From the NCBI GenBank assembly GCA_051294905.1, contig CM119378.1, positions 10,230,001 through 10,294,000 of the forward strand: a stretch of DNA of 64,000 nt, read 5' to 3'. The notes under the pieces are model-generated. The model did not search any database and had not been told where the DNA came from. It saw only the letters and a program-made list of their open reading frames with translations. The stretch comes from Botryllus schlosseri. Taxonomy: Eukaryota. The translations under genes and the position numbers were made by a program. Shown here piece by piece: positions 4,643-47,871 of the stretch; the first letter of the stretch is position 1; each line of letters starts with the position of its first letter.

Positions 4643-5194
4643 TTTAACGCAGAGCGAACGTTTGTAGTTGTATAATTGTATATCTGACTCCAGAAAGGTT
4701 GCGTTTACGATTCGCTGCGTGTTTCTTCTTCCGTTCGACGACCGGCGTAACCACGCCGTACGACCTTGTTGGCTGACGTACCACGAAGCCTGTCTCTTGC
4801 ACACGAATTCGATGGATCACACTGACGAATATATTTTGTTTCTGTCACCACGACTTGTAATTTTATTGCCAATCACGTATGGCTCAAAATGCGATCTATA
4901 TTCCCTCAATCAGCGAAATACTTATGAATGTCTATCGACTTCCGAATCATCGAAATAACCATGAATGTATATCGACTTCCGAATCAGCTAATAATCATGA
5001 ATGTATATGTACGCTGTATTACATCCGTATATATATCATAGCCACAACAGATTACGTGCACCAAACATCGTACGATTTATTTCCCTTATCTATAATTCAC
5101 ACGACAAATATACGACTCACGAAGGTCTTATCGGGTTTACCAACTCCTTATTGCATATAATTAAAATGGCGTTATACCAATATACTTCGTTAAA
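4643..5194 (-). repeat. 3' LTR of the minus-strand element
   Basis: Copy of 35524-36075 with termini TTTAACG...CGTTAAA. Preceded on the minus strand by a polypurine tract. Confidence 0.9.
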
Positions 5195-5208
5195 AGTTCC
5201 CCCTTCCT
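5195..5208 (-). promoter_or_regulatory. Polypurine tract
   Basis: Minus strand reads AGGAAGGGGGAACT immediately before the 3' LTR. Confidence 0.8.
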
Positions 5209-5811: not shown

Positions 5812-7932
5812 CATAGGCGCCGACTTTTATTTTTTTACGAGGTGGCGAATGCTTGTGACGTCATAATTGTTCCGTGTCGATGACGTCATCGTCGCACTAA
5901 AACGCACTTTCCTACACGCCGCTGGTGTGACTGTGCAGTGCAGACTGCAGAGTACCAATCACTGATTGATTGATTGATCAGCGTTAACCATTTGCGTTTT
6001 ACGTTAAGTTTTAATATCGACTCTGCACTCATTATTATCAAACCATGCAGTCAAGTTATTAAGTGGAATCTTAAAACGGTACGATCATTCGTCCGACGAT
6101 GTATACGATGCATTCCATCAGGCGGAATGCATCGAACAGAAATCAGAATTTACGTCAGAATTTGAAGTTGCATCAATGTTATCAACGAGCAATGCGTCGT
6201 GTGAGTAACGAAATACACCACGCACTGGACTGGCAAGTTCGCAAGTAACACACGACAACTCTCGAATATGAGGTTTTCAAACCGACAATAATGATGATTA
6301 CAAAGTAAAATCGCGCAGCTAATCAGCAATTGTCTCGTGCGGTTTCTGGCTTCGCATTGAGAAGCTCGCATCGCGGCAATTGTTTGCAGATTAAAACAGG
6401 GATTTTGGCGGCATTGGGGCATTTCCCGATTTACGCTCGCTAAGAATTTTTGGAGTACATCCAGGCGCGAAGCCAGGGGTTTCGGGGGTCGAAAGCCCCT
6501 CCTTAAACGCGAAACCCTGCCCTTTTCAAATGAGCGCTCTGACTGTAATACTCGGTTGCAATTCAGTCGTATTATCAGTGTTACGCGCGGCCAATTAACG
6601 AAAGCCGTGTCGACAATAAGCGAGATTCGTCATTCGTCCGTACGCATTGCACTGCACAATGTAACGCGACACGGTCTCCCGCTGGGATAATTGCGGAATT
6701 AGGTCATTCACTGCCCCGCGCTCGGCAGTTGTTGGTAGCCTGATTTATCGCGTCACCTACATGCCTAATTCCACTGGCTTGAATAATCGCATCTGCAATA
6801 GGCCCGGTGCGCACGATATCATCGTTGGCTTACAAAATCGCATCTGCATTGGCTTGGTGCACACGAGATCATCACTGGCCAACACAATCGCATCTGCAAT
6901 AGGCTTAGTACGAAAGATATCGCTAGCCAAACTACCGCGTCTCGGGCCTACCATGCTTTGGCTCCTACTTTCCGATGGCGATAGCTTGGATAAAATGCCG
7001 TTAAGTGTATGCTGATTAGCGATTGTGGTTAAAGAGTGACTTCGCGAGACTGAATGACATCGAATGTCCGCAAACATGTGCGGCGCGTGCGTACATGCGT
7101 AATTGATTTCCGCTAATACTTGAACATAATCATCAGAAGCTGTCATAAGGCTTGAGTTATAAAAGAGGAAAGGTTTGAACCACCTGAAATCGGCGTCATT
7201 GTAGCACATATTCCAAATAAACTCGTACATTTTGACTTGCGCAAATCGTCGCCAACGCTACATAAGACGTAGGACGCATTGATAAGCGCGCGTATTTAAT
7301 TGTTCACGACCGATCAGGGAGTCGCTAATTAACAGCACTTGCGGACTCGTCGACAAGCTTATCATACGAGTATCATCACGATGATATCGTTCACACCAGG
7401 CAGAAGCCGCCAATGCAGATGCGATTGCGCAGACAAGCGATGATATAGTTTGAACTGGGCCTATTGCAGATGCGATTGTTCAAGCCAGCGAAATCAGGCT
7501 TGTTCGAGATGCGATAAATCAGGCTGGCGACGATTGCCACGCACACCGCAATGACTGAACTAATTTCGCGACCATCGCAGCGGGATATCATCACAGACTC
7601 TTCGCGCTGATTGAAAACTTGCCTCTCGCAAATAGGCCGCACGGAACAACGATAACACAATTACTGAATATTGGAGTTAAAATGGTCATTTCAAAATGAC
7701 GGGCTTTCGCGTTTCAAACAGGGGGATTCGAACCCCCTGGCTACGCGCATGGTACACGCGCGTATAAATAACGAAGACGTCTCTAAGGATGTCGCATCGA
7801 TTCGCCTGATTACTAATTACTGGTCACAAACAACTTGGGCGTTTGAGCATTTCGTACGAGGTGGCCGCCACCTCGTGAATATGGTGACGAGGTGGCTGCG
7901 CCACCTCGTAACCTCGTAAGTCGGCGCCTATG
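5812..7932. mobile_element. Non-autonomous hAT-type element
   Basis: Perfect 15-bp TIR CATAGGCGCCGACTT. Perfect 8-bp TSD ACTGTCAA (5804-5811, 7933-7940). Subterminal ACGAGGTGGC repeats. Confidence 0.9.
6462..7751. mobile_element. Foldback/TIR element nested in the hAT element
   Basis: CAGGCGCGAAGCCAGGGG matches the reverse complement of ...CCCCCTGGCTACGCGCATG. Long imperfect inverted arms (6680-6900 vs 7400-7590) carry AATCGCATCTGCAAT repeats. No clean TSD found. Confidence 0.6.
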
Positions 7933-8367
7933 ACTGTCAACCCGTCCAGCGGGAACAGCAACCATTCCTACCAAATCCGTGTTGTCCGTTCCGCGTCTAC
8001 GTAACAACAGAGGGCTTATGGCAATCCGATAACCATTCTACAGCGACCATCTCCAAATAAGACGCACCGTTCCGTGACCACAACCGGGCCTACACGAGAC
8101 TAACATTTTGGTACAAGTGAAGTAAAAACCGTAACGAATGACGGGATGTAATGGGAACACTGAGTGTAGGTATTGAAGTGTTGCACTATATACGTGAAAA
8201 TGTTGCACATGAATGGGAAATTAGAGGGTGCATTGAGTAGTACGACCCATATGGAACAGGTGTATTATAAGCCCTAGGAGGTTAAAACGTGGATTTGCCA
8301 TATCCAGAAATGACGACTGGAGTGGGCGCTTGCGAGCAAACCTTCAAACCTAAAAACGTAACATTTT

Positions 8368-9393
8368 GTGCAGAGGCATGCCGGCAACATTATACGCTCG
8401 GTTAAAAGAGAAATATCATACAAATACGTGTATCTTTGCCGTCTTAATATTACAGAAGCATCGGGAGTACCTCACAACGTTCTGCGCCTGGCCCAATCTG
8501 GAATTCTGCTCAACAATCGGGATTGTATCATGTTCTTGAGGAGTCAGGGATTATTGGCTCAGCAAATGGATTGTCAAAGGTGCACAGCCCCGATGGTCGA
8601 GGAAAGGACGCGTACTATGGATGACGGGTGGAGGTTTTGTTGTCGGGATAAAGACTGCCGCACGACGAGTACTATACGAAAATGGTCACTATTCAACAAC
8701 AGCAAGGTTGGACTCCCTGAATTACTTATAATATCATATTTTTGGGCACATGATAGTGTCCAGAATCACATCTCGCACGAATCCGAAATTAGCCCTCGAT
8801 CAATCGTGGTATGGTCGGGCCATTTGCGACGGGTGTGCGCAGCAGATGTACGACGCCATAAGAAGAAACTGGGAGGCTATCAAAGAACAGTGGTAGTGGA
8901 TGAATCCCATCTAGCTAAGCGCCGCCGTGGCGTGGCTGGAAGCCAGGCCGCTAGAAAGGCTATTTGGGTTGTAGGTGGCACTGACCGGACGACGGGAGAA
9001 ATGTTCGCGGAAATAACGGCAGACAGGACTGCAGAGGTCATGAAACGTATCCTAGTCGAAAATATAGCCAGAGGCTCTACCATAGTGACAGATTGTTACC
9101 CGTCCTACAATGGAATAGAACAGTGGGGCCAGGATTACCAACACAGATCCGTGGATCATTCAATTGGCTTTATTTCTCCATCCTTTATTCATTCTAATGA
9201 CCAGGAGGCACAATGGAGTAGCTTAAAATACCACTTGAGGCGCTCAAGAGGTTTGGCAAGGCATCTCCTGCAAGAGTACGTTGATGAATGGTTATATAAA
9301 CGGCGATATGGCAGGAGTAATGTATTTGCGGCTTTGTTAAAGTCCATACGTGAAGATCCGCGGTTTGACGTGCGGCAAGCTACTAGCACATAG
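8368..9393 (+). CDS. Merlin (IS1595/ISXO2-like) DDE transposase
   Basis: N-terminal CQRC...CCRDKDC zinc finger. Motifs VVVDESHL, IWVVGG, STIVTDCYPSY, HRSVDHS, HSNDQEAQWSSLK, LQEYVDEWLYKRRY. DDE triad intact. True start uncertain: GTG start, possible acceptor at 8454-8455. Confidence 0.92.
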   Translation: MQRHAGNIIRSVKREISYKYVYLCRLNITEASGVPHNVLRLAQSGILLNNRDCIMFLRSQGLLAQQMDCQRCTAPMVEERTRTMDDGWRFCCRDKDCRTTSTIRKWSLFNNSKVGLPELLIISYFWAHDSVQNHISHESEISPRSIVVWSGHLRRVCAADVRRHKKKLGGYQRTVVVDESHLAKRRRGVAGSQAARKAIWVVGGTDRTTGEMFAEITADRTAEVMKRILVENIARGSTIVTDCYPSYNGIEQWGQDYQHRSVDHSIGFISPSFIHSNDQEAQWSSLKYHLRRSRGLARHLLQEYVDEWLYKRRYGRSNVFAALLKSIREDPRFDVRQATST

Positions 9394-9679: not shown

Positions 9680-12070
9680 ATGGTCAGCTTTTCTTTTATT
9701 GGTCATTACGGTTGTATGCTGCTTCATACATCTGCTTTGTTACTGTCTTGGGCGGAAGGAACGACAATATCTGCAAGCAATATAACGACCACATCAAGCA
9801 CCATACCCAACTATGAGGACAGAGCTAGAACAATAACTCAAGCCCAGTTTGGAAAATTACCCAGAGAGTTTCCTAAAGATTGGGCTAAATTGGAGTCGTC
9901 ACCGTGGGAGTTTATTTCGCTAGCAAAGTGCTGGGAACTACGAAACAAAACCCACAATTTTTCAAACCCGGGGATATTTTTCTCATCGACGTTTGGTTAT
10001 GTCAAGGCTGAGAGGGTCACGTTTCAAGAATACATGTATCCAACCGGACATTATTGGGATGACATAAATGCGTTTGAAAACACATGCACATGTAGGCGTC
10101 AAAAGGCATATATCACCCCAGATTTGGACTTAAAAGCCCTGGAGTCAGAGAGAACATATATAGTGCCTACCGGAAATGACTTCCGGTTAGCATGGCGATG
10201 GAAAATCGATGACTCAACCGTAAGGGGGTGGAATCCTCGAGGGCTATTTCAAATAGCCATCATGAAGTACAAACTAAAGGCCTTAAAAATGTTTGCCACA
10301 TATTCAAGTGTTAAAATAAACTGTGTCACCGATACGGTGGCGAATGAAGAAATAATGAAGGAAAGGAATGTCTACAATGATACTTCTACAGATCTGGTAG
10401 ACTGTGTTCGCTTGCTACAAATTCTGCGTTGCACTACCTGCTCTTTTCGCGGATTGGTCATTGCCTATCGACCCCATCCTAACAAGATTATCATTCAGGA
10501 AGAAGACGAAACTAGAAATTCAAGGACGTCATTGAACATTGAAATGGATTTTACTCCGGGTATACACAACTATCACCCTTCTACGCCCGTATGGTCAAAT
10601 GCCATAGTCGGGGACAAACCAACGTTACCAGAAGAGATAGTTTGGGTTTTTCCCTCCTACCCCAACAAGTACGGAACGAACTACAGGGATTCACAGATAC
10701 CTACAAAAATTGCTGGAGGACTGCCGATATACCGGCTGTATCCTTCGTTACTAAAAGAAGATCAACGATGTGTCAGACGAGTACAAGGAAACAAGGCAAT
10801 CTGTAAAGATCCTGTGGGAAGTTTGCATATGAAACTGGCCTATTGGGACCAAGTGATATATGATTCTCAGGCCAATCTAAAAAGATACCCTGGGAAACCG
10901 CTGGTCGTATTAGGAGGTCGCAAAACTGATTTGGAAACTAAGGATCCTAATCTTCCAGGAGGAAAGGGGAGACATAAGAGACTCTTTTTTTCATTGTTTG
11001 TACTGGCTTTTTCAACTATCCTAAGCTTGGCAATCACTTCTAACCTTGAAAGCATGATAAACCGCAACATGGACGACTTGACGTATCAAATGAACGCGAG
11101 ATTTACTAAAATTGAAAGCGATCTGAAAACAGTGGCAGACGGATTGAATGACCTCTCGCTCATAGGAGTAGCTCGAGCTCAAAAGCTCAACGAATTGATT
11201 GTAACTAATCTACGTAAGGGGGCGGTAACTGAGGCAAGACTTCAAACTATCACAAATATGATTTGGAACAACCGAAATATGATAATCTCTCAGGTAGATA
11301 GCCATTTGTCCACAATACAGACCGTTCAAGAAATGTCGATTGCCGAACTTTCCCTTAATCAATTAGTCATGCAACAACTACAGAACCTAACGGCTAAACC
11401 CCTATTCGATAAAAACAAAGCTTATGCCGTACGAATAAAGTCAGGCATCCTAAGCCTACGTGAAATAGCTGAAAAAATTATCAAATTGAAGGATGAATAT
11501 GTAAATGTTTCTCAAAGCCAAGCGTTGAAACTGCAAGCCACGCGGAGAGAAATAGAAGCCATTGACAACCAGGCGGAAGTCGAAATAGAACGTTGGCAAA
11601 AAGAGGTGAACCATAGTGTTTACATCAACACTACAAATTTAGAACATGATAATGTCAGCTTTGCTCATTTGAATCGTATAATCGGGGAAGAGTTCTTTGA
11701 CGATTTCGGCGACGCAGTAAAAAGTGCCGCTAACGGGACTGGTGTAATTTTAAAGTCTTTAGCTTCTGGGGCTTCTGATATTATTTCACAAGGAATCGAG
11801 GGTATTACTGGCATCTTTGGGTCAGGATTGGGGGCCATATTCAAACCCCTCATAACACCAATTATCATCATTGCTGTAATTCTAGTCACGTTATTTCTGA
11901 TTGTTAAATTATACCCAGTTTGTTTTCCAAAAGAGAAGAGATCCAGAAATACTATAAGACAGCGTAACAACAAATCGGAAATGGAAGTTTACGTGACCTT
12001 AATGAATCCATCAAAAACTGCGCGGCGAATTGTAAAGAAACCCGATAGGTTTGGAAATCTCGGCTACTGA
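9680..12070 (+). CDS. env: Envelope-like class I fusion glycoprotein, 796 aa (env1)
   Basis: Signal peptide and Cys-containing ectodomain. Furin site RHKR (10970-10981) is followed by hydrophobic LFFSLFVLAFSTILSLAI, long heptad repeats, a Gly-rich membrane-proximal segment, TM IIIIAVILVTLFLIV and a basic tail. Several N-X-S/T sites. Confidence 0.8.
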   Translation: MVSFSFIGHYGCMLLHTSALLLSWAEGTTISASNITTTSSTIPNYEDRARTITQAQFGKLPREFPKDWAKLESSPWEFISLAKCWELRNKTHNFSNPGIFFSSTFGYVKAERVTFQEYMYPTGHYWDDINAFENTCTCRRQKAYITPDLDLKALESERTYIVPTGNDFRLAWRWKIDDSTVRGWNPRGLFQIAIMKYKLKALKMFATYSSVKINCVTDTVANEEIMKERNVYNDTSTDLVDCVRLLQILRCTTCSFRGLVIAYRPHPNKIIIQEEDETRNSRTSLNIEMDFTPGIHNYHPSTPVWSNAIVGDKPTLPEEIVWVFPSYPNKYGTNYRDSQIPTKIAGGLPIYRLYPSLLKEDQRCVRRVQGNKAICKDPVGSLHMKLAYWDQVIYDSQANLKRYPGKPLVVLGGRKTDLETKDPNLPGGKGRHKRLFFSLFVLAFSTILSLAITSNLESMINRNMDDLTYQMNARFTKIESDLKTVADGLNDLSLIGVARAQKLNELIVTNLRKGAVTEARLQTITNMIWNNRNMIISQVDSHLSTIQTVQEMSIAELSLNQLVMQQLQNLTAKPLFDKNKAYAVRIKSGILSLREIAEKIIKLKDEYVNVSQSQALKLQATRREIEAIDNQAEVEIERWQKEVNHSVYINTTNLEHDNVSFAHLNRIIGEEFFDDFGDAVKSAANGTGVILKSLASGASDIISQGIEGITGIFGSGLGAIFKPLITPIIIIAVILVTLFLIVKLYPVCFPKEKRSRNTIRQRNNKSEMEVYVTLMNPSKTARRIVKKPDRFGNLGY

Positions 12071-13183: not shown

Positions 13184-16100
13184 ATGCCAAATTTCCTATG
13201 GGCATTGCTGCTGTGCTGTGTTGGTGTGATAAATCATGCGTATGCATCGGAACTACTCCCTTTGTCAGCTGTAAATTCGGAGCCAGTGGTGGAATTTAAT
13301 CACTCAGGATGGAATCGAGTTAGTGAGTTTGTAGGTATTAAACGAGTGCCGTTAAGTCAGATTTTCCCAAAAATTGGAATTGACTGGTCACGCGCAAATG
13401 GACGTTATCCCGTGTATGCTAATACAATAGAATTTGGTGCCGTAAAGGCCCCCTCACAAAGGTTGTTCAGAATCCTGTCTCCAAGAGCCGGCAAATATTG
13501 GCGATCTCCAAAACAATTTGAGAGGGAATGCTTATGTGTCCGAAATAATTCAAAAATATTACCAGAATTGACGCCCGGAAGCATAAAACAGAACATAACA
13601 TACCGACGTGGTACTGGTGTTGATCTAATACATGTCTGGCGATGGGTGATAGGCGAAGATGAACTCCCTATATCATTTACTACCCTACGAATACTGACGG
13701 TCTATAAGGCGTTGGTCATCCACTTTCTAAGCCAATACCTAGAGGTGAATGCCTACTGCTCAAGGCCCAGTCCAACGGGAGGAAACTCACGTTGGAAGAT
13801 TAGGGAAAACGGGTTCACTTATTGTGATAATAGGGGCAGACGAACCCGTAGAATTATTTGTACGCGTTGTAGAATCACTGGTAGTCGGGGAATTGCAAAT
13901 CTAGCTCACAGGAACTTTGTCGTTCATGAAAAAAGTAGGCAACAAACCACTCTAAGAATCCTATGGCCCGACGATATTCCTATGCCTACTCTGAATAAAC
14001 ACATAGTATGGCTACAGACGAGAGGGGTGAATTACAGGGTCGGCTCGCCGATACTGGAAAACCTGAACTTGAGAGTTTATAGATCATTTCCGGCGTTGGG
14101 AAAAAATAGCCCCTTTTGTCTGAGGAAACTTCAAAAACCGGAATGCGAATCTCCTGTTGGCAGTTTTGATACCGCGCTTGCGTTTGACTCGGTCTCTTAC
14201 GATGTGGCGGGAAATCAGCCCATATACCCAAATTTTAATGAAGCCATAATTCATCCGCTAAGAGCTGATATCCGAGTTTCATGCTCACGACCTCGGCCAG
14301 ACAGATATTTTATGATATGGTCACCGTTCAAGGATCAAATAAGCAAATCACTGCATGGACTAAGCCATGTTTTGCAAGTAACTGCCTCAAGGTATCTCGC
14401 TGAGGCCAAACTGCTACTCAGACAGATGGCAGCTCCCATGAAAATTTTAAGAAATGAACTATTACGATTACAGGACAAATATGCAACTACCAATGAAGTA
14501 AATAGGTTTCAGAACAGTGTCAATCAAACTCGACATAGGATAGGACGAAATCTTAACCGACAAGTGTTGGATTTACTGATGAGTGCGACAGCCGCAAATC
14601 TATTATTGAATGCCAAAATGGCAAACCTTACGCGTTTTGACCCCAATACAGTTTACAAAGCAGTAATTTGTCGAGGGGCCCTAATTTATTCAGTTTACGG
14701 GTATCGTAAAAATGAGAGCAATCCCCATACCTCTAGTCCACAGACAACAGATCTGGTGACCGAAATTGTCACTCACAGCCCAGCAAATACCCCTATAATC
14801 GCTACCAGATCTACAAAAATGCATGTAGAGACTTACGATGAAGCCCAGTCTACCTACGAACCTACCCTCATTGCCTCTAAAATCTCTCAGTCTCACAGTA
14901 ATGGTAATATCGCAACGACAAAGGTGACTCCGGATGGGGGCCAAATTCAGAAAAGTACCACCCGTACATCCGAGATGTCCACAATTACTAGTGGATATAA
15001 GCCCTACTCTCCTGCTATCCAGCATGAACTGATCATCTCTGACTCAAGAGCCGCGAAATATATTACTAATAGTGCTAGCGAAACACCCGATAATATTCAG
15101 TGGCTCGACTATGTAAGAAATGACACCGCCCGTGCTATAGTTACGTCTGAAAAACCCACAACTATTAATGCGAGCATGTCTAAATCTGGTTCCGTTACGC
15201 GCAGAAACGTTGGTAGAAGTAGCATAGCGTATACTCGCACAAAAAATGCGTCTGGTATTGATATCGGCTTGACTTCAAATACAAGTGAAACAGTATCATC
15301 GGTTGTGACCGACCCTACTTCTGGATTCCCGTCTTTATCAAAAACTGTTATGGACAAGACGGCTGCTGACCCTTTGACTTGGCCCACGAATACCTTTTCA
15401 CCCACGGAAATGGTGAAACTAGGTAGTCTGTCAACTCGGCACTCCGGAACAAAACCCATGACCAATATTAGGAATATACTTAATCCATAAACCACACCTA
15501 GCATTCGAACTTCTAAAGTAGACTCTACAGTCGCAACCATAAGATCTGAAAACTCCGCAGGGGAAATCCAATCGATGGTAACACCCCCTGGACGGGCAGC
15601 TGTTACTAATTCGAATAATAATACGCTGGCCACCTCAATAAGCACAAGTGTGGAAGACACTACATCGTACTTTCCAAATGAAAATAGTGACAGTGGACAT
15701 ATAGTGCAAGTAAATATATCCGCAAGAACCTTAAGTAACAACACGTTTGAGCAGGTACAGAACTTGATGCAGAAACTCTACCGAACAACTACAGCGGCGA
15801 TGTTATTATCAAGCAAATTACACTCGAACGCGTCCCCGCGAGAATCAGCTACTAGTACCCAGCCTAAATCGGCAAATAACATCACCAGCGAATCATTTGG
15901 GTATGAGACAACCGACCCTTTGGAAAAGCTGAATAGCCGAAATTTACGAACGGAGGCCGCAGGTAAGACTTTGAATATTTACAAAATACGCAACAATACC
16001 CCACCAGCATGGGTTAACAAAGTGCCTTCCGGTCTATTAAATAGGAAACAAACGAAAGATGATGAAATTATTATGCCCAGGTCAACTACAATGTCAGTGT

Positions 16101-16939
16101 CGGATATAAAGAGTAACGATTATGGTACGACCCTCGCTGAGCAAACAACTACTCCCGATTCGGTAGCTACACCTGATAACAGAGATACCTCAACAATTCT
16201 AAACCCACGGTCGCCTCTAATAGAGTCTTTAGCTTATTTCAGCCGTGACCAAAATACTACAACGGTTTCAAAATATTTACCTCTCGGCGCAAGCACCCAG
16301 TGGAACGAGGTGACTCATACGCAGGTTGGAATCACCTCTGAAGTGAATTTGTCAGGTTATTCGAGGCTACATAAAATTGAGATTCCGAAGGTTTCGCGTT
16401 TGGTAGTTAGTTCCCACGAAAAATCCCCCATATTGAGTAGTTCACCTGCCGTCCATACGACATTGCGTGATAATGCCTCGAATCTGGACCCGAGCACAAA
16501 CCTTGTTCGACCAGCTAATTCAGAAAGAACAACGATTCCTGTCGCCCTTAACAACATCACTATTACGTACGAACCCACAATAATACCTTTGGATATCATA
16601 TCTGACAAAGTTATAAATTCAAATAAAACGTTACCGCGCGAGAGTGAAATGGATAATCCTGCTAACAATAGTACGTTATATTTGATCAGGCTACGTGAAC
16701 TATATCGAATCGAAAGTGGATATGTATTAGGGACGGAATTCCGTGTTGAAAATTTGAAAAATGTAAACTTAAAACGACATTTCTATAAAATTATTGTGTC
16801 CATAGCAATAATTTTTGCCATAGCTATGGCTTTATTAACCTACCGCCTATATAAATATCGGGTTTCGGCCAACTACCTAAAAGGAGTTATTAGACGGAAC
16901 AACGCGGAAAATTGGTTGGAGGCAATAGAACACCACTAG
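13184..16939 (+). CDS. env1 paralogue with a mucin-like stalk (env2), interrupted by one in-frame TAA at 15488-15490
   Basis: ORFs 13184-15490 and 15575-16939 share a frame and the 28 codons between them are open. Matches to env1 include FERECLC/FENTCTC, WRWVI/WRWKI and CESPVGS/CKDPVGS. Long S/T-rich region, then TM IIVSIAIIFAIAMALLTY. Confidence 0.75.
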
Positions 16940-19900
16940 AATAACTCTTGAAGTAGAATGGTTCCAATTCATTACCGCAAGAATTAATGATATATGATTT
17001 GAGTGCAAAATTTACACTTACGAGATGACGTAAAATTGATCGATTGTTTCAAATAAGTGATTTAGGATAGCAACCTTTAGGAACCCCCGCAAACATCTTG
17101 TTTAAAAAAATGGAATGTAGAGTAGCTGGTACATAAGTTGCTAAAATCTATTACATATACTCGAAATCTTTTTAAATGGATTGTGCGTTGTACGTTGTGC
17201 GTTGTGTGAACATGGACGCCAATGTTCGCACGATTTGAATTAAATGACGAAATCTTTTGCACAAAATTACTGATCCTGATGTAAGTATAGCGTCGTGCCA
17301 CCTTTTAAGAGCTAATAAGACATAGTTACGGTGCAGTCAATGGGCCATAGAAAGAATTACACGTGAACGGCCCTCGTATTCTTAATGAGCGACTCGGAAA
17401 CCTTAACCTACAAAAATAGCCGATGATCAACGGCAACTTTTACGCCTGTCAACTTTGTTGGTATCTAGATTTTGCTGGAGATAAAGTGGTGATATAATCT
17501 AAATGTTGTTGGGGCAAAATTCCATAAATGAAGTACTGTCAGAAATTTTATCGCGTGTTAGAAAAAGCGGCCCCAAAGCCTTATTTGGAAGCTGCAATGG
17601 GAGGAACCTGACTTCCGGTGCAATTTTGCATGGGAACTGGCAACGATTGGGGTTTACCTGACCAATTATGGACACATAGGCGTTACGAAAGATCTATTTT
17701 TGATAAACCCGAATTTTGAGGCGTTCCTATAAACACCCAGTTGTCGCGGTCAATTGAATTTTCAGAATTGTTCTGGTGTTGCTAAAATTGGGGACACGGC
17801 GTTTTGACATCACAGAGTGTCACCTTACCGAAGGCTTTTTTTCTCTTCGGCAAAAGACGTGGCAACTAGTTAGTCGATATAATGATCGAGCTATCTACCC
17901 TCTTGTGATTCTGAAAATGACGGTTAGGTAGTACAGTGCTGAGGCTTCAAAAAGTTACTTAATGGGTTTCAGATACGCAGGTTGCAATGATTTATCTATT
18001 GTTCAAGTTATAATCAATTAGTTATCAGGAATTACAGAGCAGAATGCAGGTTGAACTCAATTAGGCTTGAGTTATATTACTAGGGTGTTGTGAGTGCTTG
18101 AGGTTCTATTAAAATCAAAATATCTTGACTTATTTTAAAAATAGGTTTGGAGTTGCGAAGTACTGAATCAAATTAGGGGATTAAAACGTAACCTATGAAT
18201 TTTAGTGGCGGCTATTGATAAAGTTACTAGGTTTTATACAGAGAACCTCGGTGCCAACGCTAGTTCAACCACATTAATAGATCATAAGTGAACAATTATT
18301 GACAGCATTGCATTATGTCCGAAAATCACATAATGCGGATAGTTTAGAACCCCAAACCTATTCAGGGTTTGGAAGACTTGCGGCAAAGGAAAATAGTATA
18401 TTGCAATTACCTGAAATAAATTTGAATTACTTACTGATAATACAAGAATTGAAGTGTAACGTGTAATTTCATGGCGTAAATGCCTGCTGCGGCGATGGTC
18501 GATAATATAAAATAAAAGCTTTGAAATAGAATGCCAGTTGCTAAATTAATTATAATTACAGTGATCTCGACTCTTTTGACATTATGCTTTTCCTCAGGTG
18601 ATTGTCACAAAATAACCAGAGGTTAAGCGTTGCCGATAGCGAATGACCGACATGTGTGCCCAATCGAGTTTTCAGTAAAACCGGTGCGTGCGAGTGTTGG
18701 GCGGATTCATCTTATGTACTGTTAGGAATAAATTGTGCTGCTTTAGAATTGATGCCTCATTCCAAAAATAGACAACTAGGCTAACAGATAAGTTTCAATA
18801 ATGCTCTTTGATGCACGGGTATATCAAATTAATATGGCTTTTTCTATAAATATGTGTCCATTGTTTCCGTGTTTTGGGTTGATATCATATTGATTCAAAA
18901 CTTGCGTCTTGGGTTGTAATTCGTATTATGCTAAAATGCGGCCTCTTAGGCCTTAAACCTTCCGTTTTATACTAAAGACTAGTCCTTTAAGGCCTATTGG
19001 CCTGAAGCAAGCGTCCTGATAAAAGGCGGTATACTGGCCTACAATCTAGCTCATAGGTCTCTTGGTCGGGGGGTACGGTTTCAAGGTAGATTGTATAGGT
19101 CGATTTCGTTTGAATCACGCTGCATCTGCTAAGCAATCGGTTCGTTCGTAGAATAGAGGTTTGGTTGGTGTAATAAACCGCTGCCCTGGACAAATTCGCG
19201 TTAATAGCCCACTATACTTCCTCCGGCATTGAGTAAGATCTCAGGGTTTCGGCGCGCCAAGAGCAAAGTAAATATGTAAAAGCGGTAACACATGAAATGA
19301 TCTAGCTATCGTGATTCCTCCTTCTAATATTGGTACCCATTATTTAATTTTATAGTCTCGGTGTACTATGACTTGATCAGCGGTCTGAGTTATACTAGAG
19401 TTAAGAATACAAGATATCAAAATGGATTATAAATACGAGACATCATATGGGTGAGTTTACTTCATGTATTCAGAGTTTAACGTTGAGTGCCTGGATTGTA
19501 AACTGTTGCTACACAATTACGATTAATTAATCTTACATTTGCTGTAAAACTTTAAATGGGGTAAATATTGATCCTATACTGAAATTGTTTAAATTTCTTG
19601 ACTGCACCCCGGCGTCAGACTCAAATAAGAGGGATTACAATACCAATTTACAAAACTTCTCGTAAAATCTAATTTGTTACAGCCAGTATGCTATGACCAA
19701 TATAACGCACTATTGTTTTGAAACTAGACAACAGCCGAAAACGTACATTATAATTAAGTATCAGTAAGGATAGGTTATGATACGAGCTTCTTGTTTTTGC
19801 ATTGTTGCCTATATGTTCTGTGCTGTCTAAGGGAATATGATTTATCAGGAAATTGCGAAATACTGTTTCGCAATCTAGCCCGTAGCTAGCACACACCTTA

Positions 19901-25013: not shown

Positions 25014-25045
25014 AACCACCACCACCACCACCACCACCACCACCA
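25014..25045. repeat. (CCA)n microsatellite
   Basis: About ten ACC/CCA units; explains the poly-P/W/V stretches in the ORF track. Confidence 0.9.
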
Positions 25046-26216: not shown

Positions 26217-29200
26217 ATGAAGAAATTCTTCCGAAAGAAAAAATCGCCGGAGGCGGTTGCTGAGCTTGAGCAGGGTATACAACTGTTCAAAGCTACGCAA
26301 AGGCGTCACGAAAACGTAAGAGACCAGGAGAAAAGACTAACTCAAAGCGTCGCTGAACAGACGAAGCTCCTGCAGGACGTCAAAGCAGTTTTGCCAGTAG
26401 CGGTAAAAGAATTGGACAAAGCCAAAAAAGAGGTTACACAGGCCCAAGCAGATTTGAAAGCAGTCAGCGATGCCACAGCTAAAGTTAGTGGTAAAGTGTC
26501 CACTGATGTACTGAATCAAGTCTTGAAGGCCGAGTTTGAGTTGGGGAGAGAACACACTAGAGCAGTCGGGGATAAGCCCCCCCGACCATCTCCCGCTCTC
26601 GCAATATTACCTGCCACGCTACCACCGTCATACGATCAACAATCTGGACGAGGCACCGATAGGGCGACGCTCCGACCTAAACTCCAGGTTACCAAAGGCC
26701 TAGATTGTCATACAGTAACGGCAGTCTATCCCACTCTACCCGGATCAAAATCTGGAGATATGGTACGTAAGACGGCCCGAATATCATCGGCTCGTCGCAC
26801 CGGAACATCACAACAGGCCGGTCCTGCACTTCGACTGACTACGACGCCCGGCCAGAGACTGTCGGACGCAATGGAACAGATGCGATCGAGGTCCCTGGAC
26901 AGGTGTGAGCGAGACAATATGCCCGCTCCTGCTCCTAAAAATGGCCCTGGATCAGACGCCGAAGTGCGATTTGATGACGATTACCTACCCAGATACACCG
27001 AACCGTCAAGGTTTTTGCAGGCGGGGGTAGCCAGGAATGGCCGGGACAATGTACGACTGACTTTCGACGCGCTAGGAAAGCGTCGGGCGCGTAGTGAACC
27101 TGATGAGACAAGGCATGTGGTTTTCGAAGAAGCTGGCCGGGTCTCCCAAGGAGGAGAGCCAAAATGTGAGGGCCCCTCTCCAAATGACTTGCCACGACAG
27201 CATGAACGCCGACCAGATGAGCTGTTTGACGCGCTTAGGGGTCCAGGTTATTTTGATGAAGATTATGCGCCTTCTCAATTCACAACAGGACCACCTAGAT
27301 TTCAATCTACCCCTGATGACATTGATGGGAGCCCCAATCGCCCACAACGACAATTCGGCGGCCCGTATGAGGAGCTTGTTGGCAACCAAGCTCATGCACA
27401 TACAGTACATGTTGCCGAAAGACCTGCCAGACTTCAGACTGAGAAAGAAATGATGCAGCTCATGATGGACCCTGATGACATGCCGCTCGTCAAATGGATG
27501 GCGAATACAATGGAGCGCATTGAGCATGGGGAGGGTGATACTAACGAGGATATCATATTGTCAAATGCGATGCAGAAAAAGCTGAAACAAGCTGGACGCC
27601 AAAAACAAGCCAGGCAATTGGGAAATTTCTTCAATACCAATTCTGGTAAACCCAGCTGGGAGTCTGTCATGCGATCTCTATCATTGTCCAACCCACAAGG
27701 ATTGGCGAACAATGAGAAAATCATAAATGAGTTTCGAAATAACTACTCCTGGGACGACGAACCACTACCACTGCTCAACAGCACGCTAAAGCAGCTTGAA
27801 ATTAATATGGGTGATTGTATCACGAAAAGTCCGGATGGACTGCGCCTCTTCAGACACTTACGACGTCAACTCCCTCAGGCCCTTAGGATCTTAATCCGTG
27901 GGTATGAATATGGCTCTTGGAGAAATGTGGCTGAGGAATTGCAGATGTTCTGGAACACGGAATTTTTGGATGATCAAGAAGAGGGAAGATTCCCCCAGAA
28001 AGACAAACATAACAATAAGCGAAAAAATACTGATGCTATATCACCCCTACCACCAGTGCATATCTATAATGTGCAACCGGCGGGGCAGATAATGCCGAGT
28101 TATCCTACTCGACCAGTGCAAGCTGGTGCTGCGCCTACCATGATAAGTTCAGCCCCACCGCCCCCTCCACCACCCATGCCTGCCGGCAGGCCTCCCCAAT
28201 CTGCGCAAGCAACTGGACGTCAGCAATACTCGGCACAAAATCGTAATCCGCTGCCGCGACGAAATCCGGGTCGTACAGCCAAAACAAACCGTTTTCCTAA
28301 TGCCGTGATGGCTGGTGGAAACCCCTATCGAAGGAGTGCTGCACCCGGGAGGCAGACGGGATCGAGGGTCCTAGGAAGGTCGGGAAGACAGCCCGACGCG
28401 AGCAGAAACAACGGCCAGCGTCCACGAAACTCTCAAAACGTACGAACGACTCCGGGAATGCCAGCATCAGACCAGAGGGGACGCGGCCTACCGCAGACTC
28501 AAGATTCGGGCGTCGGGGTGGACCATTCGCAGCTAACGCCGTCCAACAGTCAAGAGGCGAGCCAGATTTCGAACACCCAAGGTGAGAGGTATAATTTCCT
28601 TGGCAACCCTAATATATTTGCGCCATTAGGGTTGTATTTACATCCCTCGCAGGGACAGGCCTTGTCGGTCTGTTATTATTGTAAATCGCCGGGGCATCAA
28701 TCTCGCAATTGCGTGGTAAAATTCATATTGTGGCTGAATGATCAGGTACTGACTAAAGATGATGTATTGGGCTGGATTATAAGAAAACGTGTTCGACCGG
28801 TGCCCGCCCATGTCAAAGAAACAACTGAACAAAATTGGCTTCCCTTTTTGGAGTCTAACCAACTACTGACAATACCCGATTTGGACCGGTATTTTGCGTC
28901 TCAGGGCTCTCCCTCGTTCATTGAGAGAACCACCCTATGTGAGGCTTATTATGACGATAGACCCAAAAATCGTGACAAGACTCATTGGCATAATAGAGAG
29001 CAATGGGGGCCACAAGGACCACCAAATATGGGGGGTCAGCCTGCTAATAATGCTAATACTGTCGCATGGACCCAACCTCAATATACCCCACCCCAATATC
29101 ACGAACCCCATTATCACCAACAATTCCAACCCAGTAATAACCCATACTGGACTGATGAGGAATTGCACCAGGGCTTGGTGCTGGCAAAAAACGCGGCGCT

Positions 29201-29243
29201 TCTTCGATATACGCCCCAGATCGAAACAGTGCTTCACATGTAA
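26217..29243 (+). CDS. gag: Gag polyprotein; the last ~16 codons are contributed by the inserted MITE
   Basis: Polybasic N-terminus, coiled coil, PPSY and YPTL motifs, capsid-like core conserved with copy 2, and CCHC knuckle CYYCKSPGHQSRNC (28671-28712). Confidence 0.85.
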   Translation: MKKFFRKKKSPEAVAELEQGIQLFKATQRRHENVRDQEKRLTQSVAEQTKLLQDVKAVLPVAVKELDKAKKEVTQAQADLKAVSDATAKVSGKVSTDVLNQVLKAEFELGREHTRAVGDKPPRPSPALAILPATLPPSYDQQSGRGTDRATLRPKLQVTKGLDCHTVTAVYPTLPGSKSGDMVRKTARISSARRTGTSQQAGPALRLTTTPGQRLSDAMEQMRSRSLDRCERDNMPAPAPKNGPGSDAEVRFDDDYLPRYTEPSRFLQAGVARNGRDNVRLTFDALGKRRARSEPDETRHVVFEEAGRVSQGGEPKCEGPSPNDLPRQHERRPDELFDALRGPGYFDEDYAPSQFTTGPPRFQSTPDDIDGSPNRPQRQFGGPYEELVGNQAHAHTVHVAERPARLQTEKEMMQLMMDPDDMPLVKWMANTMERIEHGEGDTNEDIILSNAMQKKLKQAGRQKQARQLGNFFNTNSGKPSWESVMRSLSLSNPQGLANNEKIINEFRNNYSWDDEPLPLLNSTLKQLEINMGDCITKSPDGLRLFRHLRRQLPQALRILIRGYEYGSWRNVAEELQMFWNTEFLDDQEEGRFPQKDKHNNKRKNTDAISPLPPVHIYNVQPAGQIMPSYPTRPVQAGAAPTMISSAPPPPPPPMPAGRPPQSAQATGRQQYSAQNRNPLPRRNPGRTAKTNRFPNAVMAGGNPYRRSAAPGRQTGSRVLGRSGRQPDASRNNGQRPRNSQNVRTTPGMPASDQRGRGLPQTQDSGVGVDHSQLTPSNSQEASQISNTQGERYNFLGNPNIFAPLGLYLHPSQGQALSVCYYCKSPGHQSRNCVVKFILWLNDQVLTKDDVLGWIIRKRVRPVPAHVKETTEQNWLPFLESNQLLTIPDLDRYFASQGSPSFIERTTLCEAYYDDRPKNRDKTHWHNREQWGPQGPPNMGGQPANNANTVAWTQPQYTPPQYHEPHYHQQFQPSNNPYWTDEELHQGLVLAKNAALLRYTPQIETVLHM
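29186..29192 (+). promoter_or_regulatory. -1 ribosomal frameshift slippery site A AAA AAC
   Basis: After removing the MITE, gag reads LAKNAWGR* and pol continues in the -1 frame as KKRLGALMDPVNQ. Confidence 0.75.
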
Positions 29244-30075: not shown

Positions 30076-30083
30076 AAAAACGC

Positions 30084-33000
30084 TTGGGGGCGCTGATGGA
30101 TCCGGTAAATCAGTTGCCCGATTTAGTGTTACCCCATTATACGAAAACTATACATAACTCTGAATTACCCATATTTACCTTTTTTGATTTGCCGGACAAA
30201 ATGCCGCAACCCGATTTTAGGGACTTATTTGGCGGACAATTATTGTATTTTACAGACACAAAAACAGGTACACAATTTCTTGCGGATACAGGAAGTGTTC
30301 CTAACCTGATAACCCAAGATGCCGTTAAAGCTACCTACCCAGAAAGCTGGACTGAAAGACAACCACTCGATATGAAATTACGCGGCATAGGAGGATCATC
30401 CAGTGTCGACTTTGTCGTCATCATCAAGCTGGACAACCTACCGGTTCCGTTTGCAACTGGTGAAGGAGTCCCGTTAAACATTATCGGACTGAAATGGATT
30501 GAGCAAGTTCAACGGCTACCCTCAGTAGCGACAGAATTGAAGGATCCCACTACAGTGAATTATGAACTATCATTGTCCGTGTATTCGGACACGGCAAAAA
30601 CCATAGCTGGGAGCAGTACTTGCAACGCTGCTACTGGTGATGGGTCGGTGGAAGCTGCAACGTTACATAGCGTCGAGACTGGAAGCCCAGCTGGCGCCCC
30701 TCGGGACCATAGATGTCCCTGTCTCTCGGAAGGATTTTGCGCCAAGTGTGGAGAAACCACGGATACAAAATTAAGTCGGGTGAGCGCTGTGACCCCGAAA
30801 TCCTTACGTGCTGAGCGCGGAAGCCCCACTAGCACCTCTCAGGAACGACATGTTCAAGAGATTCCTGAAAACTACGGCCACTGCATTCGCCACGATAGAA
30901 GAGTGGGAATCGTTCACGACGGCTCCATGGCCGCAGCAGTTGTGCCGCAAACCGAGAAGATAGCATTGAAAGCAGCTGTCGACATCCACACTACAAATTT
31001 TGTGGATGGAGAAGAGTCTGGAGGCCATATGCACGCCTCTCCAGAAAAAGGGCCCCCGGTGGGCGTTGAAACCGCCGGCGTGAAGTTGGATGCGGGCACG
31101 CAGCCCCTTCAGAGGCAGAAAAAATCGAGTGTGGAAGCCCCACTGATTACTGATACCCTCGCTCTCTCTCCACCGGCATCAAAACCGCGCCACGGCCTCT
31201 ATAGACATGGTCGTGGCCCGATAAAAACGTATGAACTGTATGATGGAACTGATAAGAAAGTGAAGACAGAGTTGGAACGGCTATGCAGCCAAGCGGTTGA
31301 ACTTGCCAAATCTGCATATAAACCTCCAGACCTCACATGTCCGGATAATACAATTATACCGGACCAGGTTTGGAGAGAGATTTACGAGCCGTACGCGAAC
31401 GAACTTGAAGACCTGCGAGGTCATCTCAAAGCTCCACAAGTTATGGATTATAAATGTGACATTGAACTTAAGGACCCCTCTACCAAACCATTTGTGTCAG
31501 GTCCGTATAACCTGAAGGGGAAGGACCAGGCTAAGGCATTGCAAGAAGCCGTAGAAAACTTCCTGGATTTGGGAGTCATTGAACAGGGGTTTGCCCAATG
31601 GAAACTGGCCATTTTCGTGGTACCCCAGAAAATGAATGAACGGCAAAAACAAGAGGACGGATGGAAACAAGCGTGGAGAGTTGTACAAAATCTTCAACCA
31701 TTGAACGCTGCCATCAAGTCTATAGAAGTTCCCCCTCCCCTTGTACCTGACGTAAAGCAGCACGCGCAAGGGCGAGAGGTACTTTCCCTGCTGGACTTGA
31801 AGAAGGCCTATTTCCACATGGATATGACGGAAAGGTCTAAGCAGTATGTAGGCATTGCTGTGAAGGGAATGCATATACGATGGCGCAAGATGCCGATGGG
31901 GCTCCGCATTTCGCTGGCGTTTTGGATGTCCAATATGCAGAAATGCGTGGTCACGCCTATCACAGAGAGTTACCGGAAGTGCATGAAAGAACATGGTCGT
32001 ATGGACGAAGCTACAGCGACGCCCATCGAGGCCTACATCGATGATATATTTCTAAGTACGAAGACAGTCGACGATCACCTGGTGCTATTACGACTGGTGT
32101 TTGAACAACTGGCTAACATGAAACTGACTGTAAGCATCAATAAGTGTTTCTTTGGTAAACGGCGGGTAAACCTGCTGGGTGCAACCGTAACGGGTAAGGA
32201 AATCGAAGTTCAGCCCGAACGAGTGCGAGCACTCAAAGAACTTGCGCCACCCCACAATATTTACGAACTCCGGGGGTGGATTGGTGCACTTCGATATATC
32301 TCAGAACATATACCGGAGTTGAGCCTAAAACTGGCTAAATTTGACGCTCTCACTGGAAAAGTTCCAGCGACTCAGGGCAGAATAACACCGTTACTATGGA
32401 CTAAAGAATTGCTACATGATTTCAAGACAGCGCAAGCCTTGCTAAACGATACAAGGGTGCTGTATCATCTCAACCCAGATCTTCCCTTGTATGTCGAAAC
32501 AGATGCATCTGATGTGGGTTTTGGCTCGGTGATATTTCAAACAGAAGTGGGATGTACCCCACCATTCGACAAGGTGTACACTATCGCTTTTTACAGCCAA
32601 AAATGGACTACACCCACGGCGAAAGTGTACGACCCCTGTACAAAAGAACTAAAGGCTCTGAAGGATTCTGTGGAAAAATGGCAATCGATGTTACGCGCAC
32701 TACCGTTCACGATCATCACAGACAACATGGGCGTGTTTGGGCTGTTGAAAAGAATGACAGACAATGCCAAGAACCCAAGCCCTAAACCACTGATTCAACG
32801 GTGGCTCAATCAGTTATCGGGTTTTCAAATCGAAAAGGTGATACACTTGAGTACCTCACAAGTGTTTACCTCCGACGGCCTTTCCCGCTCTTACTGGATG
32901 GAGATGGCTGCGGGAGAAGATGACCCCGGAGTATGGACGGCTCGTCCTTCAAGCGAAAACACCGAGGGACACACCATCAACAGCACACGAGATCGCGAAA

Positions 33001-33530
33001 GTGTGCAAAGATTTTTGATACGTCACTGTAGACACGAAGTATGTGATAACAGTGAAAACGGTATTCATCCCTGGGAAAACGTACAACAACTCCTGAAAGA
33101 GAAGCTGGGAAGGGATCTCCCGATGGCCACGCTAAAACGGATCATGCGGGACAGCACCAGAGCGGTAGTCTCGGATAAAGGGTTGGCGGCCGCACAGGGA
33201 CATACCGTGGGAGAACCCCCTCATTATGAACAATATTTAAATAATGACAAATTGTATCATATGACTACACGTACCAGAGCCATACAAATCATGAATAGCG
33301 AACTCAGACGTATGGGTAGGAGGTATGTACACCTCAGCATACAGGAGCCAAGCTATAAATATATTCGGGGAGCAGCTTTAGAAATGGACTCATGCGATCT
33401 CCGAAAACTGGGATTAACTCTATTGCAATCACCCAATTCGGACGTGGTTTTGTGTGAAGGCCCTATCCCAAATGCACATATACGTCTCGCGCACGAAATC
33501 GTGAGTCGAACACGGTCAAACAGCGCATAA
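30084..33530 (+). CDS. pol: Pol: aspartic protease, reverse transcriptase, Ty3/Gypsy-type RNase H and an unknown C-terminal domain; no integrase
   Basis: Protease FLADTGS and IIGLKWI. RT LLDLKKAYFHM, MPMGL, AYIDDIFL, KCFFG. RNase H TDASDVG, KELKAL, ITDN, SDGLSR. No HHCC or DDE motif downstream. Confidence 0.92.
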   Translation: MGALMDPVNQLPDLVLPHYTKTIHNSELPIFTFFDLPDKMPQPDFRDLFGGQLLYFTDTKTGTQFLADTGSVPNLITQDAVKATYPESWTERQPLDMKLRGIGGSSSVDFVVIIKLDNLPVPFATGEGVPLNIIGLKWIEQVQRLPSVATELKDPTTVNYELSLSVYSDTAKTIAGSSTCNAATGDGSVEAATLHSVETGSPAGAPRDHRCPCLSEGFCAKCGETTDTKLSRVSAVTPKSLRAERGSPTSTSQERHVQEIPENYGHCIRHDRRVGIVHDGSMAAAVVPQTEKIALKAAVDIHTTNFVDGEESGGHMHASPEKGPPVGVETAGVKLDAGTQPLQRQKKSSVEAPLITDTLALSPPASKPRHGLYRHGRGPIKTYELYDGTDKKVKTELERLCSQAVELAKSAYKPPDLTCPDNTIIPDQVWREIYEPYANELEDLRGHLKAPQVMDYKCDIELKDPSTKPFVSGPYNLKGKDQAKALQEAVENFLDLGVIEQGFAQWKLAIFVVPQKMNERQKQEDGWKQAWRVVQNLQPLNAAIKSIEVPPPLVPDVKQHAQGREVLSLLDLKKAYFHMDMTERSKQYVGIAVKGMHIRWRKMPMGLRISLAFWMSNMQKCVVTPITESYRKCMKEHGRMDEATATPIEAYIDDIFLSTKTVDDHLVLLRLVFEQLANMKLTVSINKCFFGKRRVNLLGATVTGKEIEVQPERVRALKELAPPHNIYELRGWIGALRYISEHIPELSLKLAKFDALTGKVPATQGRITPLLWTKELLHDFKTAQALLNDTRVLYHLNPDLPLYVETDASDVGFGSVIFQTEVGCTPPFDKVYTIAFYSQKWTTPTAKVYDPCTKELKALKDSVEKWQSMLRALPFTIITDNMGVFGLLKRMTDNAKNPSPKPLIQRWLNQLSGFQIEKVIHLSTSQVFTSDGLSRSYWMEMAAGEDDPGVWTARPSSENTEGHTINSTRDRESVQRFLIRHCRHEVCDNSENGIHPWENVQQLLKEKLGRDLPMATLKRIMRDSTRAVVSDKGLAAAQGHTVGEPPHYEQYLNNDKLYHMTTRTRAIQIMNSELRRMGRRYVHLSIQEPSYKYIRGAALEMDSCDLRKLGLTLLQSPNSDVVLCEGPIPNAHIRLAHEIVSRTRSNSA

Positions 33531-33995: not shown

Positions 33996-34280
33996 TTACT
34001 GCAACACATAATCATTCAAATGTCTTGGTCTAACAATTCGTCTCCCTCTGGACGTATATCTTGGACTTGACTCGTTGAGAGTTCTGCCTTCATTACATGT
34101 TTGGGTCTTAGATTTGGGTTCATGTCCATTATTATCGCGATCGACGTCAACAGGTAAGCAATCAGATACACGCTCTCGAGACGCGTCACTAACACTACTC
34201 GGACAGTCGCTATCGCTGTCATCACTACTAGCCGACACTACACACGCGTCGCCCGGAGTTACCGCGGAGTTTAGTACCAC
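33996..34280 (-). pseudogene. Integrase C-terminal tail of the minus-strand LTR element
   Basis: Low-complexity linker ending PRYTSRGRRIVRPRHLNDYVLQ*, the typical Gypsy RxxRxPxxLxDYV terminus. Confidence 0.6.
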
Positions 34281-35299
34281 TCTGTCCGCATCAACGGGCG
34301 GAAAGTAACATCAGTCTGTTTATACAGACTACTGAAATACAAAGCAACAACATTAGGCGCTCAAAAAAACATTACCATCACTTAATACCTCAAAACAACA
34401 CATACACGACATTACGGCAACATTAAAGGATACATTACATTGGGCATTCAGAAAACCGATAATATCACTCGCACACGAACTAATTAGCAAGATACTGTTA
34501 TGGGTATAAAAAAATTCGAATATTCACCTGCAATCATTTTATTCTAACTTGATATGAAACTTCCTAATTCATATCACGTAGCATTTAACATTGGTATATA
34601 GTATATACCAACAGAACGAGAGTGTGCCCTATTTATTGTATTACATGCAAAGCAATGTTTGCAAATATCATGCACTACCGCGGTGCATATTTTCTCAATG
34701 ATATACTCAACATAAGGGTATCGTCGTACGGCAGAGGCCTAATATCTCTTCATAAGGCTTGCAATATATCATTATTCATCACACATACATATCAAGCTAT
34801 TCAGCTATTGGATGCATCATGGCATCGAATAAATAGGGTAGCCTTCATGCTACGGGTTTACCCGCACACTTCTCTAATCAAAACATTATGCTATACAAGC
34901 ACCTGCGACTGTCCTGCGTCCTACCGCTGTCAACAGCGCAGGATTTGACTCGCAGGAAATGCGACCCCTACCTGGGTTTAGAAACCAATGATTGCAAGTT
35001 ACTTTACTAAACTACACTTTGTCAATATCCCAATAACAGCAACCAACTAACGTCGTAGTGCAAGAAAATAAAATCGATCTACCTTTCATTTTTCTAATCC
35101 GTGTGATGCATGATTGGAGCACCACCGTCCGCAAATCTGCTTAGCTTCTGCGATTTCCGACCGATTTCTGACACTGCATACGTTGTCTTCATTATTGTCT
35201 TCTCTCTGGCGTCTTGATCGTCCAAAAGCACAACTCCACTGCATTTCTTCTGGTTGGTCTTTCTCACCGTCGTGCAGGGCGAATCTTCGTTGTCAATTC

Positions 35300-35507: not shown

Positions 35508-35522
35508 ACGTCGGGTTCACCA
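35508..35522 (-). promoter_or_regulatory. Primer-binding site, tRNA-Trp
   Basis: Minus strand TGGTGAACCCGACGT vs the tRNA-Trp 3' complement TGGTGACCCCGACGT (14/15). One nucleotide from the 5' LTR. Confidence 0.85.
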
Positions 35523-35523: not shown

Positions 35524-36075
35524 TTTAACGCAGAGCGAACGTTTGTAGTTGTATAATTGTATATCTGACTCCAGAAAGGTTGCGTTTACGATTCGCTGCG
35601 TGTTTCTTCTTCCGTTCGACGACCGGCGTAACCACGCCGTACGACCTTGTTGGCTGACGTATCACGAAGCCTGTCTCTTGCACACGAATTCGATGGATCA
35701 CACTGACGAACATATTTTGTTTCTGTCTCCACGACTTGTAATTTTATTGCCAATCACGTATGGCTCAAAATGCGATCTATATTCCCTCAATCAGCGAAAT
35801 ACTTATGAATGTCTATCGACTTCCGAATCATCGAAATAACCATGAATGTATATCGACTTCCGAATCAGCTAATAATCATGAATGTATATGTACGCTGTAT
35901 TACATCCGTATATATATCATAGCCACAAGAGATTACGTGCACCAAACATCGTACGATTTATTTCCCTTATCTATAATTCACACGACAAATATACGACTCA
36001 CGAAGGTCTTATTGGGTTTACCAACTCCTTATTGAATATAATTAAAATGGCGTTATACCAATATACTTCGTTAAA
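35524..36075 (-). repeat. 5' LTR of the minus-strand element
   Basis: 552-bp copy of 4643-5194, adjacent to the PBS. Confidence 0.9.
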
Positions 36076-47537: not shown

Positions 47538-47550
47538 AGTAGCCTACTCT

Positions 47551-47867: not shown

Positions 47868-47871
47868 ATTT

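Follow-up and report, generated by a model that had tools for sequence, protein, structure and literature searches.

Why would a retroelement that has an intact fusogen gene also carry a second, homologous envelope gene from which the marks of a fusogen are missing, and why is that second gene interrupted by a stop codon? The two genes, env1 and env2, lie inside a 31.4-kb LTR element (4643-36075) of the window, that is, the whole stretch of 64,000 nucleotides of Botryllus schlosseri DNA analyzed here. The two LTRs of the element differ at 6 of 552 positions (98.9% identity). We propose, with a probability of roughly 0.55, that env2 is an old paralogue of env1 that may have become a non-fusogenic, membrane-anchored (type I) accessory glycoprotein, and that the stop codon in this copy is damage.

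Env2 compared with its neighbor env1

Env1 has the signal peptide, basic cleavage site, fusion peptide, long helix, and TM anchor that characterize class I viral fusogens in sequence. Env2 (13184..16939, plus strand) runs for 768 aa from an ATG at 13184 to a TAA at 15488-15490, and past this stop the frame remains open for another 482 codons, up to a TAG at 16937-16939. The chance of 482 open codons is about 2e-12, and the full frame comprises 1251 codons with one stop and no frameshift. A first, sequence-only reading of this DNA had described a single TAA that divides a 768-aa form from one of about 1250 aa, and the reading frames (768 and 482 codons) bear this out; that the shorter form would be secreted and the longer one anchored is a prediction from hydropathy. 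The features of the two genes are as follows.

9680..12070, plus strand: env1, an intact 796-aa class I-type fusogen with signal peptide, RHKR, fusion peptide, long helix, hairpin, helix, and TM segment
10970..10981, plus strand: env1 RHKR (residues 431-434)
10982..11044, plus strand: env1 fusion peptide (residues 435-455)
11849..11908, plus strand: env1 TM helix (residues 724-743)
13184..13246, plus strand: env2 predicted signal peptide, about residues 1-21 (hydrophobic N-terminus, hydropathy 1.6; putative cleavage point)
13247..14296, plus strand: env2 surface (head) domain, homologous to the env1 surface subunit
14294..14353, plus strand: env2 degenerate junction, RPDR and a short hydrophobic remnant in place of furin site and fusion peptide
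14327..14701, plus strand: env2 helix and beta-hairpin, putatively retained from the N-terminal part of the fusion subunit
14726..16663, plus strand: env2 Ser/Thr-rich, Cys-free, mucin-like stalk, residues 515-1160
15488..15490, plus strand: single in-frame TAA, inside the env2 stalk
16781..16849, plus strand: env2 transmembrane helix, residues 1200-1222 (hydropathy 2.5 over 19 residues)
16850..16939, plus strand: env2 basic cytoplasmic tail and stop codon

Aligned with BLASTP, env2 and env1 match significantly (E value of 2e-18, 24% identity over 493 columns). Compared with env1 and with two relatives of env1, the surface domain of env2 (residues 20-374) outscores all of 500 shuffles (z of 34 to 35), and each of its 8 cysteines in the interval 116-321 has an env1 cysteine as its counterpart in the alignment. 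Hence, the homology of the first ~370 aa to the env1 surface domain, suggested by the sequence-only reading, holds, but its proposed end at residue 370 does not, as weak homology continues to about residue 505. Relatives of env1 are found at 38 to 53% identity and env2 at 24%; therefore, either the duplication is old or env2 is evolving fast.

The two proteins part at the junction of the subunits, where env1 has RHKR followed by a hydrophobic 20-mer (hydropathy 2.12) and env2 has RPDR (residues 371-374) followed by a 20-mer with a mean hydropathy of -0.07. In a survey of 52 sequences, 17 of which were anchored by a motif across the junction, [RK]-x-[KR]-R was present at this point in 15; it was absent only from env2 and from a protein called P0016, discussed below. 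The 20-mers after the site in the 15 family members that have it range in hydropathy from 0.51 to 2.94. What survives at the env2 junction is the minimal R-x-x-R and five hydrophobic residues, and the loss of furin site and fusion peptide noticed from the sequence is thus confirmed. Two canonical R-x-R-R motifs lie within the env2 head (RGRR at 217 and RTRR at 220, residues 217-223), so that some cleavage elsewhere is possible.

Beyond the junction the likeness is faint. Against a fusion-subunit profile built from 22 family members, residues 375-530 of env2 score 6.3 bits and residues 390-530 of P0016 score 12.9 bits; in neither case did any of 200 shuffles score as high, and no match to this profile was found beyond env2 residue 530. 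A profile-profile alignment of env2 with the env1 family reaches the hairpin motif. In pairwise comparison the helix region of env2 gives a weak z of 2.5 against env1, and on its own it did not exceed shuffles against the family members P0001 and P0002. The model of env1 (pLDDT of 71) has a long helix, a beta-hairpin at about residues 582-595, and then another helix, and the likeness of env2 to env1 ceases directly after the hairpin. These alignments give a weak indication that env2 retains the helix and beta-hairpin of the fusion subunit without its C-terminal helix.

In env2 the C-terminal helix before the TM segment is replaced by a Ser/Thr stalk of 645 aa, without cysteines or internal repeats and with 6 to 7% Pro. 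Ser and Thr make up 28% of the stalk compared with 17% expected from base composition (31% upstream of the stop and 27% downstream), and this enrichment is restricted to the env2 frame, the other two plus-strand frames having 12% and 12% and many stops. The stalk is hence long, Ser/Thr(Pro)-rich, Cys-free, and presumably extracellular, as mucin-like domains are, with an enrichment that is moderate rather than extreme. It is followed by the TM helix at residues 1200-1222, and both features had been recognized correctly in the sequence-only reading.

Lacking cleavage site, fusion peptide, and C-terminal helix, env2 is very probably a fusion-dead paralogue of env1. The protein keeps a disulfide-bonded head and, having lost the cleavage site and the fusion peptide, continues past residue 505 with stalk, TM helix, and tail. 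Without a membrane-inserting peptide and a fold-back helix it should be non-fusogenic, as it would be unable to insert into a target membrane or to refold into a post-fusion bundle.

What kind of envelope protein did env2 arise from? The env1 family has no Pfam match. It has no significant match in the PDB, and fold searches with whole models returned nothing, although the head of the family is modeled confidently. Pfam and fold searches gave no match of env1 to F or gB; the ESM Atlas gave 0.85 to Fusion_F0, which is a lead only. Weak signals, with a structural match below significance, point to hemagglutinin/HEF rather than to paramyxovirus F. The family may be a further kind of retroelement envelope. 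Several of its members (among P0001 to P0050) have long N-terminal extensions and some have extra TM segments; P0006 has an EGF-like match (E value of 0.031).

P0016 and the possible role of env2

When 1.84 billion representatives were searched with a profile, 49 matches were obtained, and only one further protein of the env2 design was among them. This protein, P0016 (722 aa, on a contig of 5305 nt), is about 25% identical to env2 and has in one open frame a signal-like N-terminus, head, helix and hairpin, Ser/Thr stretch, TM helix, and tail. The basic site is absent and so is the internal stop. Its stalk is short (88 aa, 32% Ser+Thr). Because P0016 is intact, the fusion-dead, anchored design occurs elsewhere, and the length of the stalk varies. 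The recurrence supports the idea, raised from the sequence of env2, of a non-fusion paralogue with a mucin-like stalk.

Do the two proteins share this design by descent? The match of P0016 to env2 reaches 111 bits, compared with 77 for its match to env1. Their regions after the junction align with a z of 8.7, a score that none of 1000 shuffles reached, and the score of 74 between their helix regions is the best of 24 comparisons (the others being at most 56); the helix region of P0016 scores 69 with P0020, which is close to this value. Env2 and P0016 join, both on long branches, in a 17-row tree that includes the region after the junction (SH-aLRT of 90), whereas the join is absent from a tree of the surface domain only, where it occurs in 4% of bootstrap trees. 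The alternative tree that joins env2 with env1 is not rejected (p-AU of 0.25), and neither the stalks nor the C-termini of env2 and P0016 align significantly (z of -0.1 and 1.5). Taken together, common descent of the env2 design with P0016 is probable.

The long branches, the poorly resolved tree, the internal stop, and the stalks that do not align would also fit a spare env in decay, without any role, whose stalk drifted into low complexity and which P0016 resembles through separate, convergent decay. We consider this very improbable. At 24% identity to env1, the frame still has 1251 codons with one stop and no frameshift, all 8 cysteines are kept, the Ser/Thr enrichment is found in the reading frame alone (28% versus 12% and 12%), and P0016 has the same break point. 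A head kept at ~25% identity after the loss of fusion points to a function that depends on the head.

We hypothesize that this function is attachment. The heads carry net charges of +21 in env2 (pI of 10.1; residues 80-365), +15 in P0016, and +9 in env1. The putatively O-glycosylated stalk of env2 may hold its basic head off the surface of the particle or the cell, so that the head could tether particles to glycans or receptors on cells while env1 would perform fusion. There is about an even chance that the role of env2 is of this kind rather than shielding or interference. In the latter case the glycans of the stalk would mask env1, or the head would occupy the receptor of the producer cell and block reinfection. 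The anatomy is the same for both roles, and a stalk of 645 aa would be long enough to cover an ectodomain of 700 aa, but we regard shielding or interference as rather unlikely.

One variant of interference is that a truncated env2 copy might be retained by the host as a soluble blocker. According to the accessible part of PMC9245640, truncated, secreted Env proteins of endogenous retroviruses such as Refrex-1 block infection in mammals by competing for the receptor. As in env2, early termination yields a surface domain that is soluble; however, the mammalian examples in that text are damaged copies of fusogenic env genes (PMC9245640), whereas env2 would already be non-fusogenic by design, and its stop lies 250 residues into the stalk. 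Two findings speak against a retained blocker: the intact relative P0016 is anchored, and the element is recent (6 of 552 LTR differences), which leaves little time for co-option of this copy by the host.

For attachment, the closest working analogy is nidovirus HE, which is not known to have a mucin stalk. As far as the accessible text of PMC3266934 goes, HE derives from an orthomyxovirus HEF-like protein and serves attachment beside a separate fusion protein; it was acquired by horizontal transfer and adjoins an unrelated spike, whereas env2 is a paralogue of its neighbor. In the literature covered, which is thin for subscription journals and Repbase, we found no description of a fusion-dead, mucin-stalked env paralogue.

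The in-frame TAA

Is the stop in env2 damage or a switch? The sequence-only reading had raised two ideas, a designed pair of soluble and membrane forms made by readthrough and a plain nonsense mutation. The second is favored. Under neutral drift, the divergence of the LTRs predicts 0.7 to 0.9 stops in env2, and the probability of at least one stop is 50 to 59% (22 to 86% across the range of uncertainty). For the remaining four ORFs, which are free of stops, the same model predicts 2.1 to 2.4 (P of 0.09 to 0.13 for none), so that its fit is only moderate. The 120 nt from the stop onward fold no better than shuffles (z of 0.04; 104 of 200 shuffles as good), there is no Rfam match around the stop, and the stop lies in the middle of the stalk, at no domain border and with equal composition on both sides. 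Because a readthrough structure was not found, the position is within the stalk, and the LTRs predict 0.7 to 0.9 stops, we interpret the TAA as most likely a nonsense mutation of this particular copy, or else an error in base calling, and not as a regulated switch. An 881-nt insertion at the gag-pol junction shows that the element is damaged elsewhere too. This copy of env2 is predicted to yield only an unanchored product of 768 aa. A search for a second copy of the env2 stalk found none.

A conserved, leaky TAA would instead provide an abundant soluble decoy of 768 aa and a minor anchored form of 1251 aa. The soluble product would include the entire head, the frame downstream of the stop is preserved over 482 codons up to and including TM helix and tail, and the other four ORFs are free of the 2.1 to 2.4 stops expected. 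Programmed readthrough is nevertheless improbable, given the lack of a stable RNA structure after the stop and the open frame of P0016. The stop context is AAT CCA TAA ACC, and to our knowledge the contexts that favor leaky termination do not include UAA followed by A. Other routes to alternative forms fare no better, as a simple pattern scan downstream of the stop gave no acceptor-like site for an in-frame splice and the 240 nt upstream contain no slippery run. Readthrough, the most eye-catching part of the sequence-only reading, is thus probably not real.

The same reading had likened env1 and env2 to the division of labor in F/G viruses. Pneumoviruses also split fusogen and mucin-like surface protein, and they have soluble and anchored forms; their G, however, has type II topology and is not related to F, and soluble G is made from a second start codon, whereas env2 is of type I, comes from the fusogen family itself, and is homologous to env1, which had no F match in Pfam or fold searches. 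The analogy is therefore loose. In Ebolavirus, one gene encodes both a soluble head (sGP) and an anchored protein of greater length that includes a mucin-like domain (GP). There, however, GP acts as the fusogen, and the two forms arise when the polymerase stutters and shifts the frame; env2, by contrast, is interrupted by an in-frame stop without a long A run nearby and lacks a fusion peptide. Both analogies appear to fit less well than nidovirus HE.

The LTR element and its surroundings

The layout of the element that contains env1 and env2 is possibly more unusual than env2 itself. It is flanked by a 5-bp target duplication (TCAGT at 4638-4642 and 36076-36080), and its other features are as follows.

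4643..5194, minus strand: LTR, 552 nt (3' LTR by the orientation of the priming site)
~5195-5211, minus strand: polypurine tract
8362..9393, plus strand: intact ISXO2/IS1595-like (Merlin-type) transposase ORF (Pfam PF12762, E value of 1.4e-10)
26217..29243, plus strand: gag-like ORF with CCHC zinc knuckle; the inserted element supplies its last codons
29195..30075: inverted-repeat element with 8-bp target duplication (AAAAACGC) at the gag-pol junction
30076..33530, plus strand: pol, with protease-like, RT, and RNase H domains, then a Tpt1/KptA RNA 2'-phosphotransferase domain
33996..34310, minus strand: short ORF ending in an integrase-tail-like motif, no Pfam match
35508..35522, minus strand: primer-binding-site-like sequence, TGG...
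35524..36075, minus strand: LTR (5' LTR)

Paired LTRs, target duplication, primer-binding site, and polypurine tract are those of an errantivirus-like Ty3/gypsy element, but no integrase-containing gag-pol that runs in the same sense as the primer-binding site was found. All five long ORFs (transposase, env1, env2, gag, and pol) are on the plus strand, and the primer-binding-site-like sequence, which we take to correspond to tRNA-Trp, and the polypurine tract are on the minus strand. The LTR ends are TTTAACG...CGTTAAA, not TG...CA. The pol domains were assigned with Pfam (RVT_1, RT_RNaseH, and PTS_2-RNA, the last with an E value of 5.6e-7). No integrase was detected in pol or by a six-frame Pfam scan of three intergenic stretches, and our literature search found no example of a retroelement with a Tpt1/KptA domain. 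The motif that closes the short minus-strand ORF presumably resembles the C-terminal tail of LTR-retrotransposon integrases.

Env-carrying Ty3/gypsy elements (errantiviruses) share with this one the LTRs, the primer-binding site, gag, an RT-RNase H that is Ty3/gypsy-like by its Pfam domains, and an env with signal peptide, furin site, fusion peptide, and TM segment. The present element departs from them in its pol, which lacks an integrase and ends in Tpt1, in the antisense direction of its ORFs relative to primer-binding site and polypurine tract, and in env1, for which Pfam and fold searches returned neither F nor gB. The accessible part of the survey by Chary and Hayashi (PMC13524379) portrays errantivirus-type elements with only one env each, which is of F or gB type and either follows or precedes pol, whereas the present element has two, both located upstream of gag.

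With one copy at hand, the plus-strand genes may be cargo in a deleted element or part of an unusual native layout, and env1 and env2 may or may not belong to the gag-pol unit 9 kb downstream. No boundaries of a nested plus-strand element were found, and the 9 kb between env2 and gag (16940-26200) gave no Pfam match above the cutoff in six frames. The transposase ORF, which ends 290 nt upstream of env1 and has no detectable terminal inverted repeats around it, could be captured cargo.

Several further repeats and genes were observed. Upstream of the transposase, the element contains a large imperfect inverted repeat (6461-7752, 67 to 77%), and near each LTR there is a copy of a 125-nt direct repeat (5456-5578 and 34306-34428, 65%), which suggests an old duplication or recombination of two related elements. 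The insertion at the gag-pol junction has internal CCCTAA-rich tandem repeats. Elsewhere in the window, 422-nt inverted repeats (96%) lie about 13 kb apart (42383-55540), with TA outside a slightly shorter boundary, and enclose, on the minus strand, a relative of the gag-pol described above that is frameshifted and has its RT deleted; a second, decayed pol copy near 44265-44537 (minus strand) has the same Tpt1/KptA domain. Polinton/Maverick-like genes, including an A32-like ATPase and an rve integrase, occupy 56623-64000 (plus strand), along with split ORFs that by eye resemble a protein-primed polymerase and have no Pfam match.

These features could belong to an undescribed, retrovirus-like lineage of invertebrates with an HEF-related fusogen, a paralogous mucin-stalked attachment protein, an antisense 31-kb LTR element, and a Tpt1-ended pol, which we put forward as a speculative and, for now, unlikely reading. 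If it is true, the step from HEF to HE would have been repeated inside one genome, the gag, pol, and env genes would all be antisense to the reverse-transcribed strand, and a 2'-phosphotransferase would replace the integrase. The pair of env1 and env2 contrasts with the single F- or gB-type env per element in the accessible part of the env survey (PMC13524379). If a second, fusion-dead env is conserved, a two-component entry machinery could be built by duplication of an element's own fusogen, and this would offer a model, open to testing, for the origin of attachment proteins from fusion proteins.
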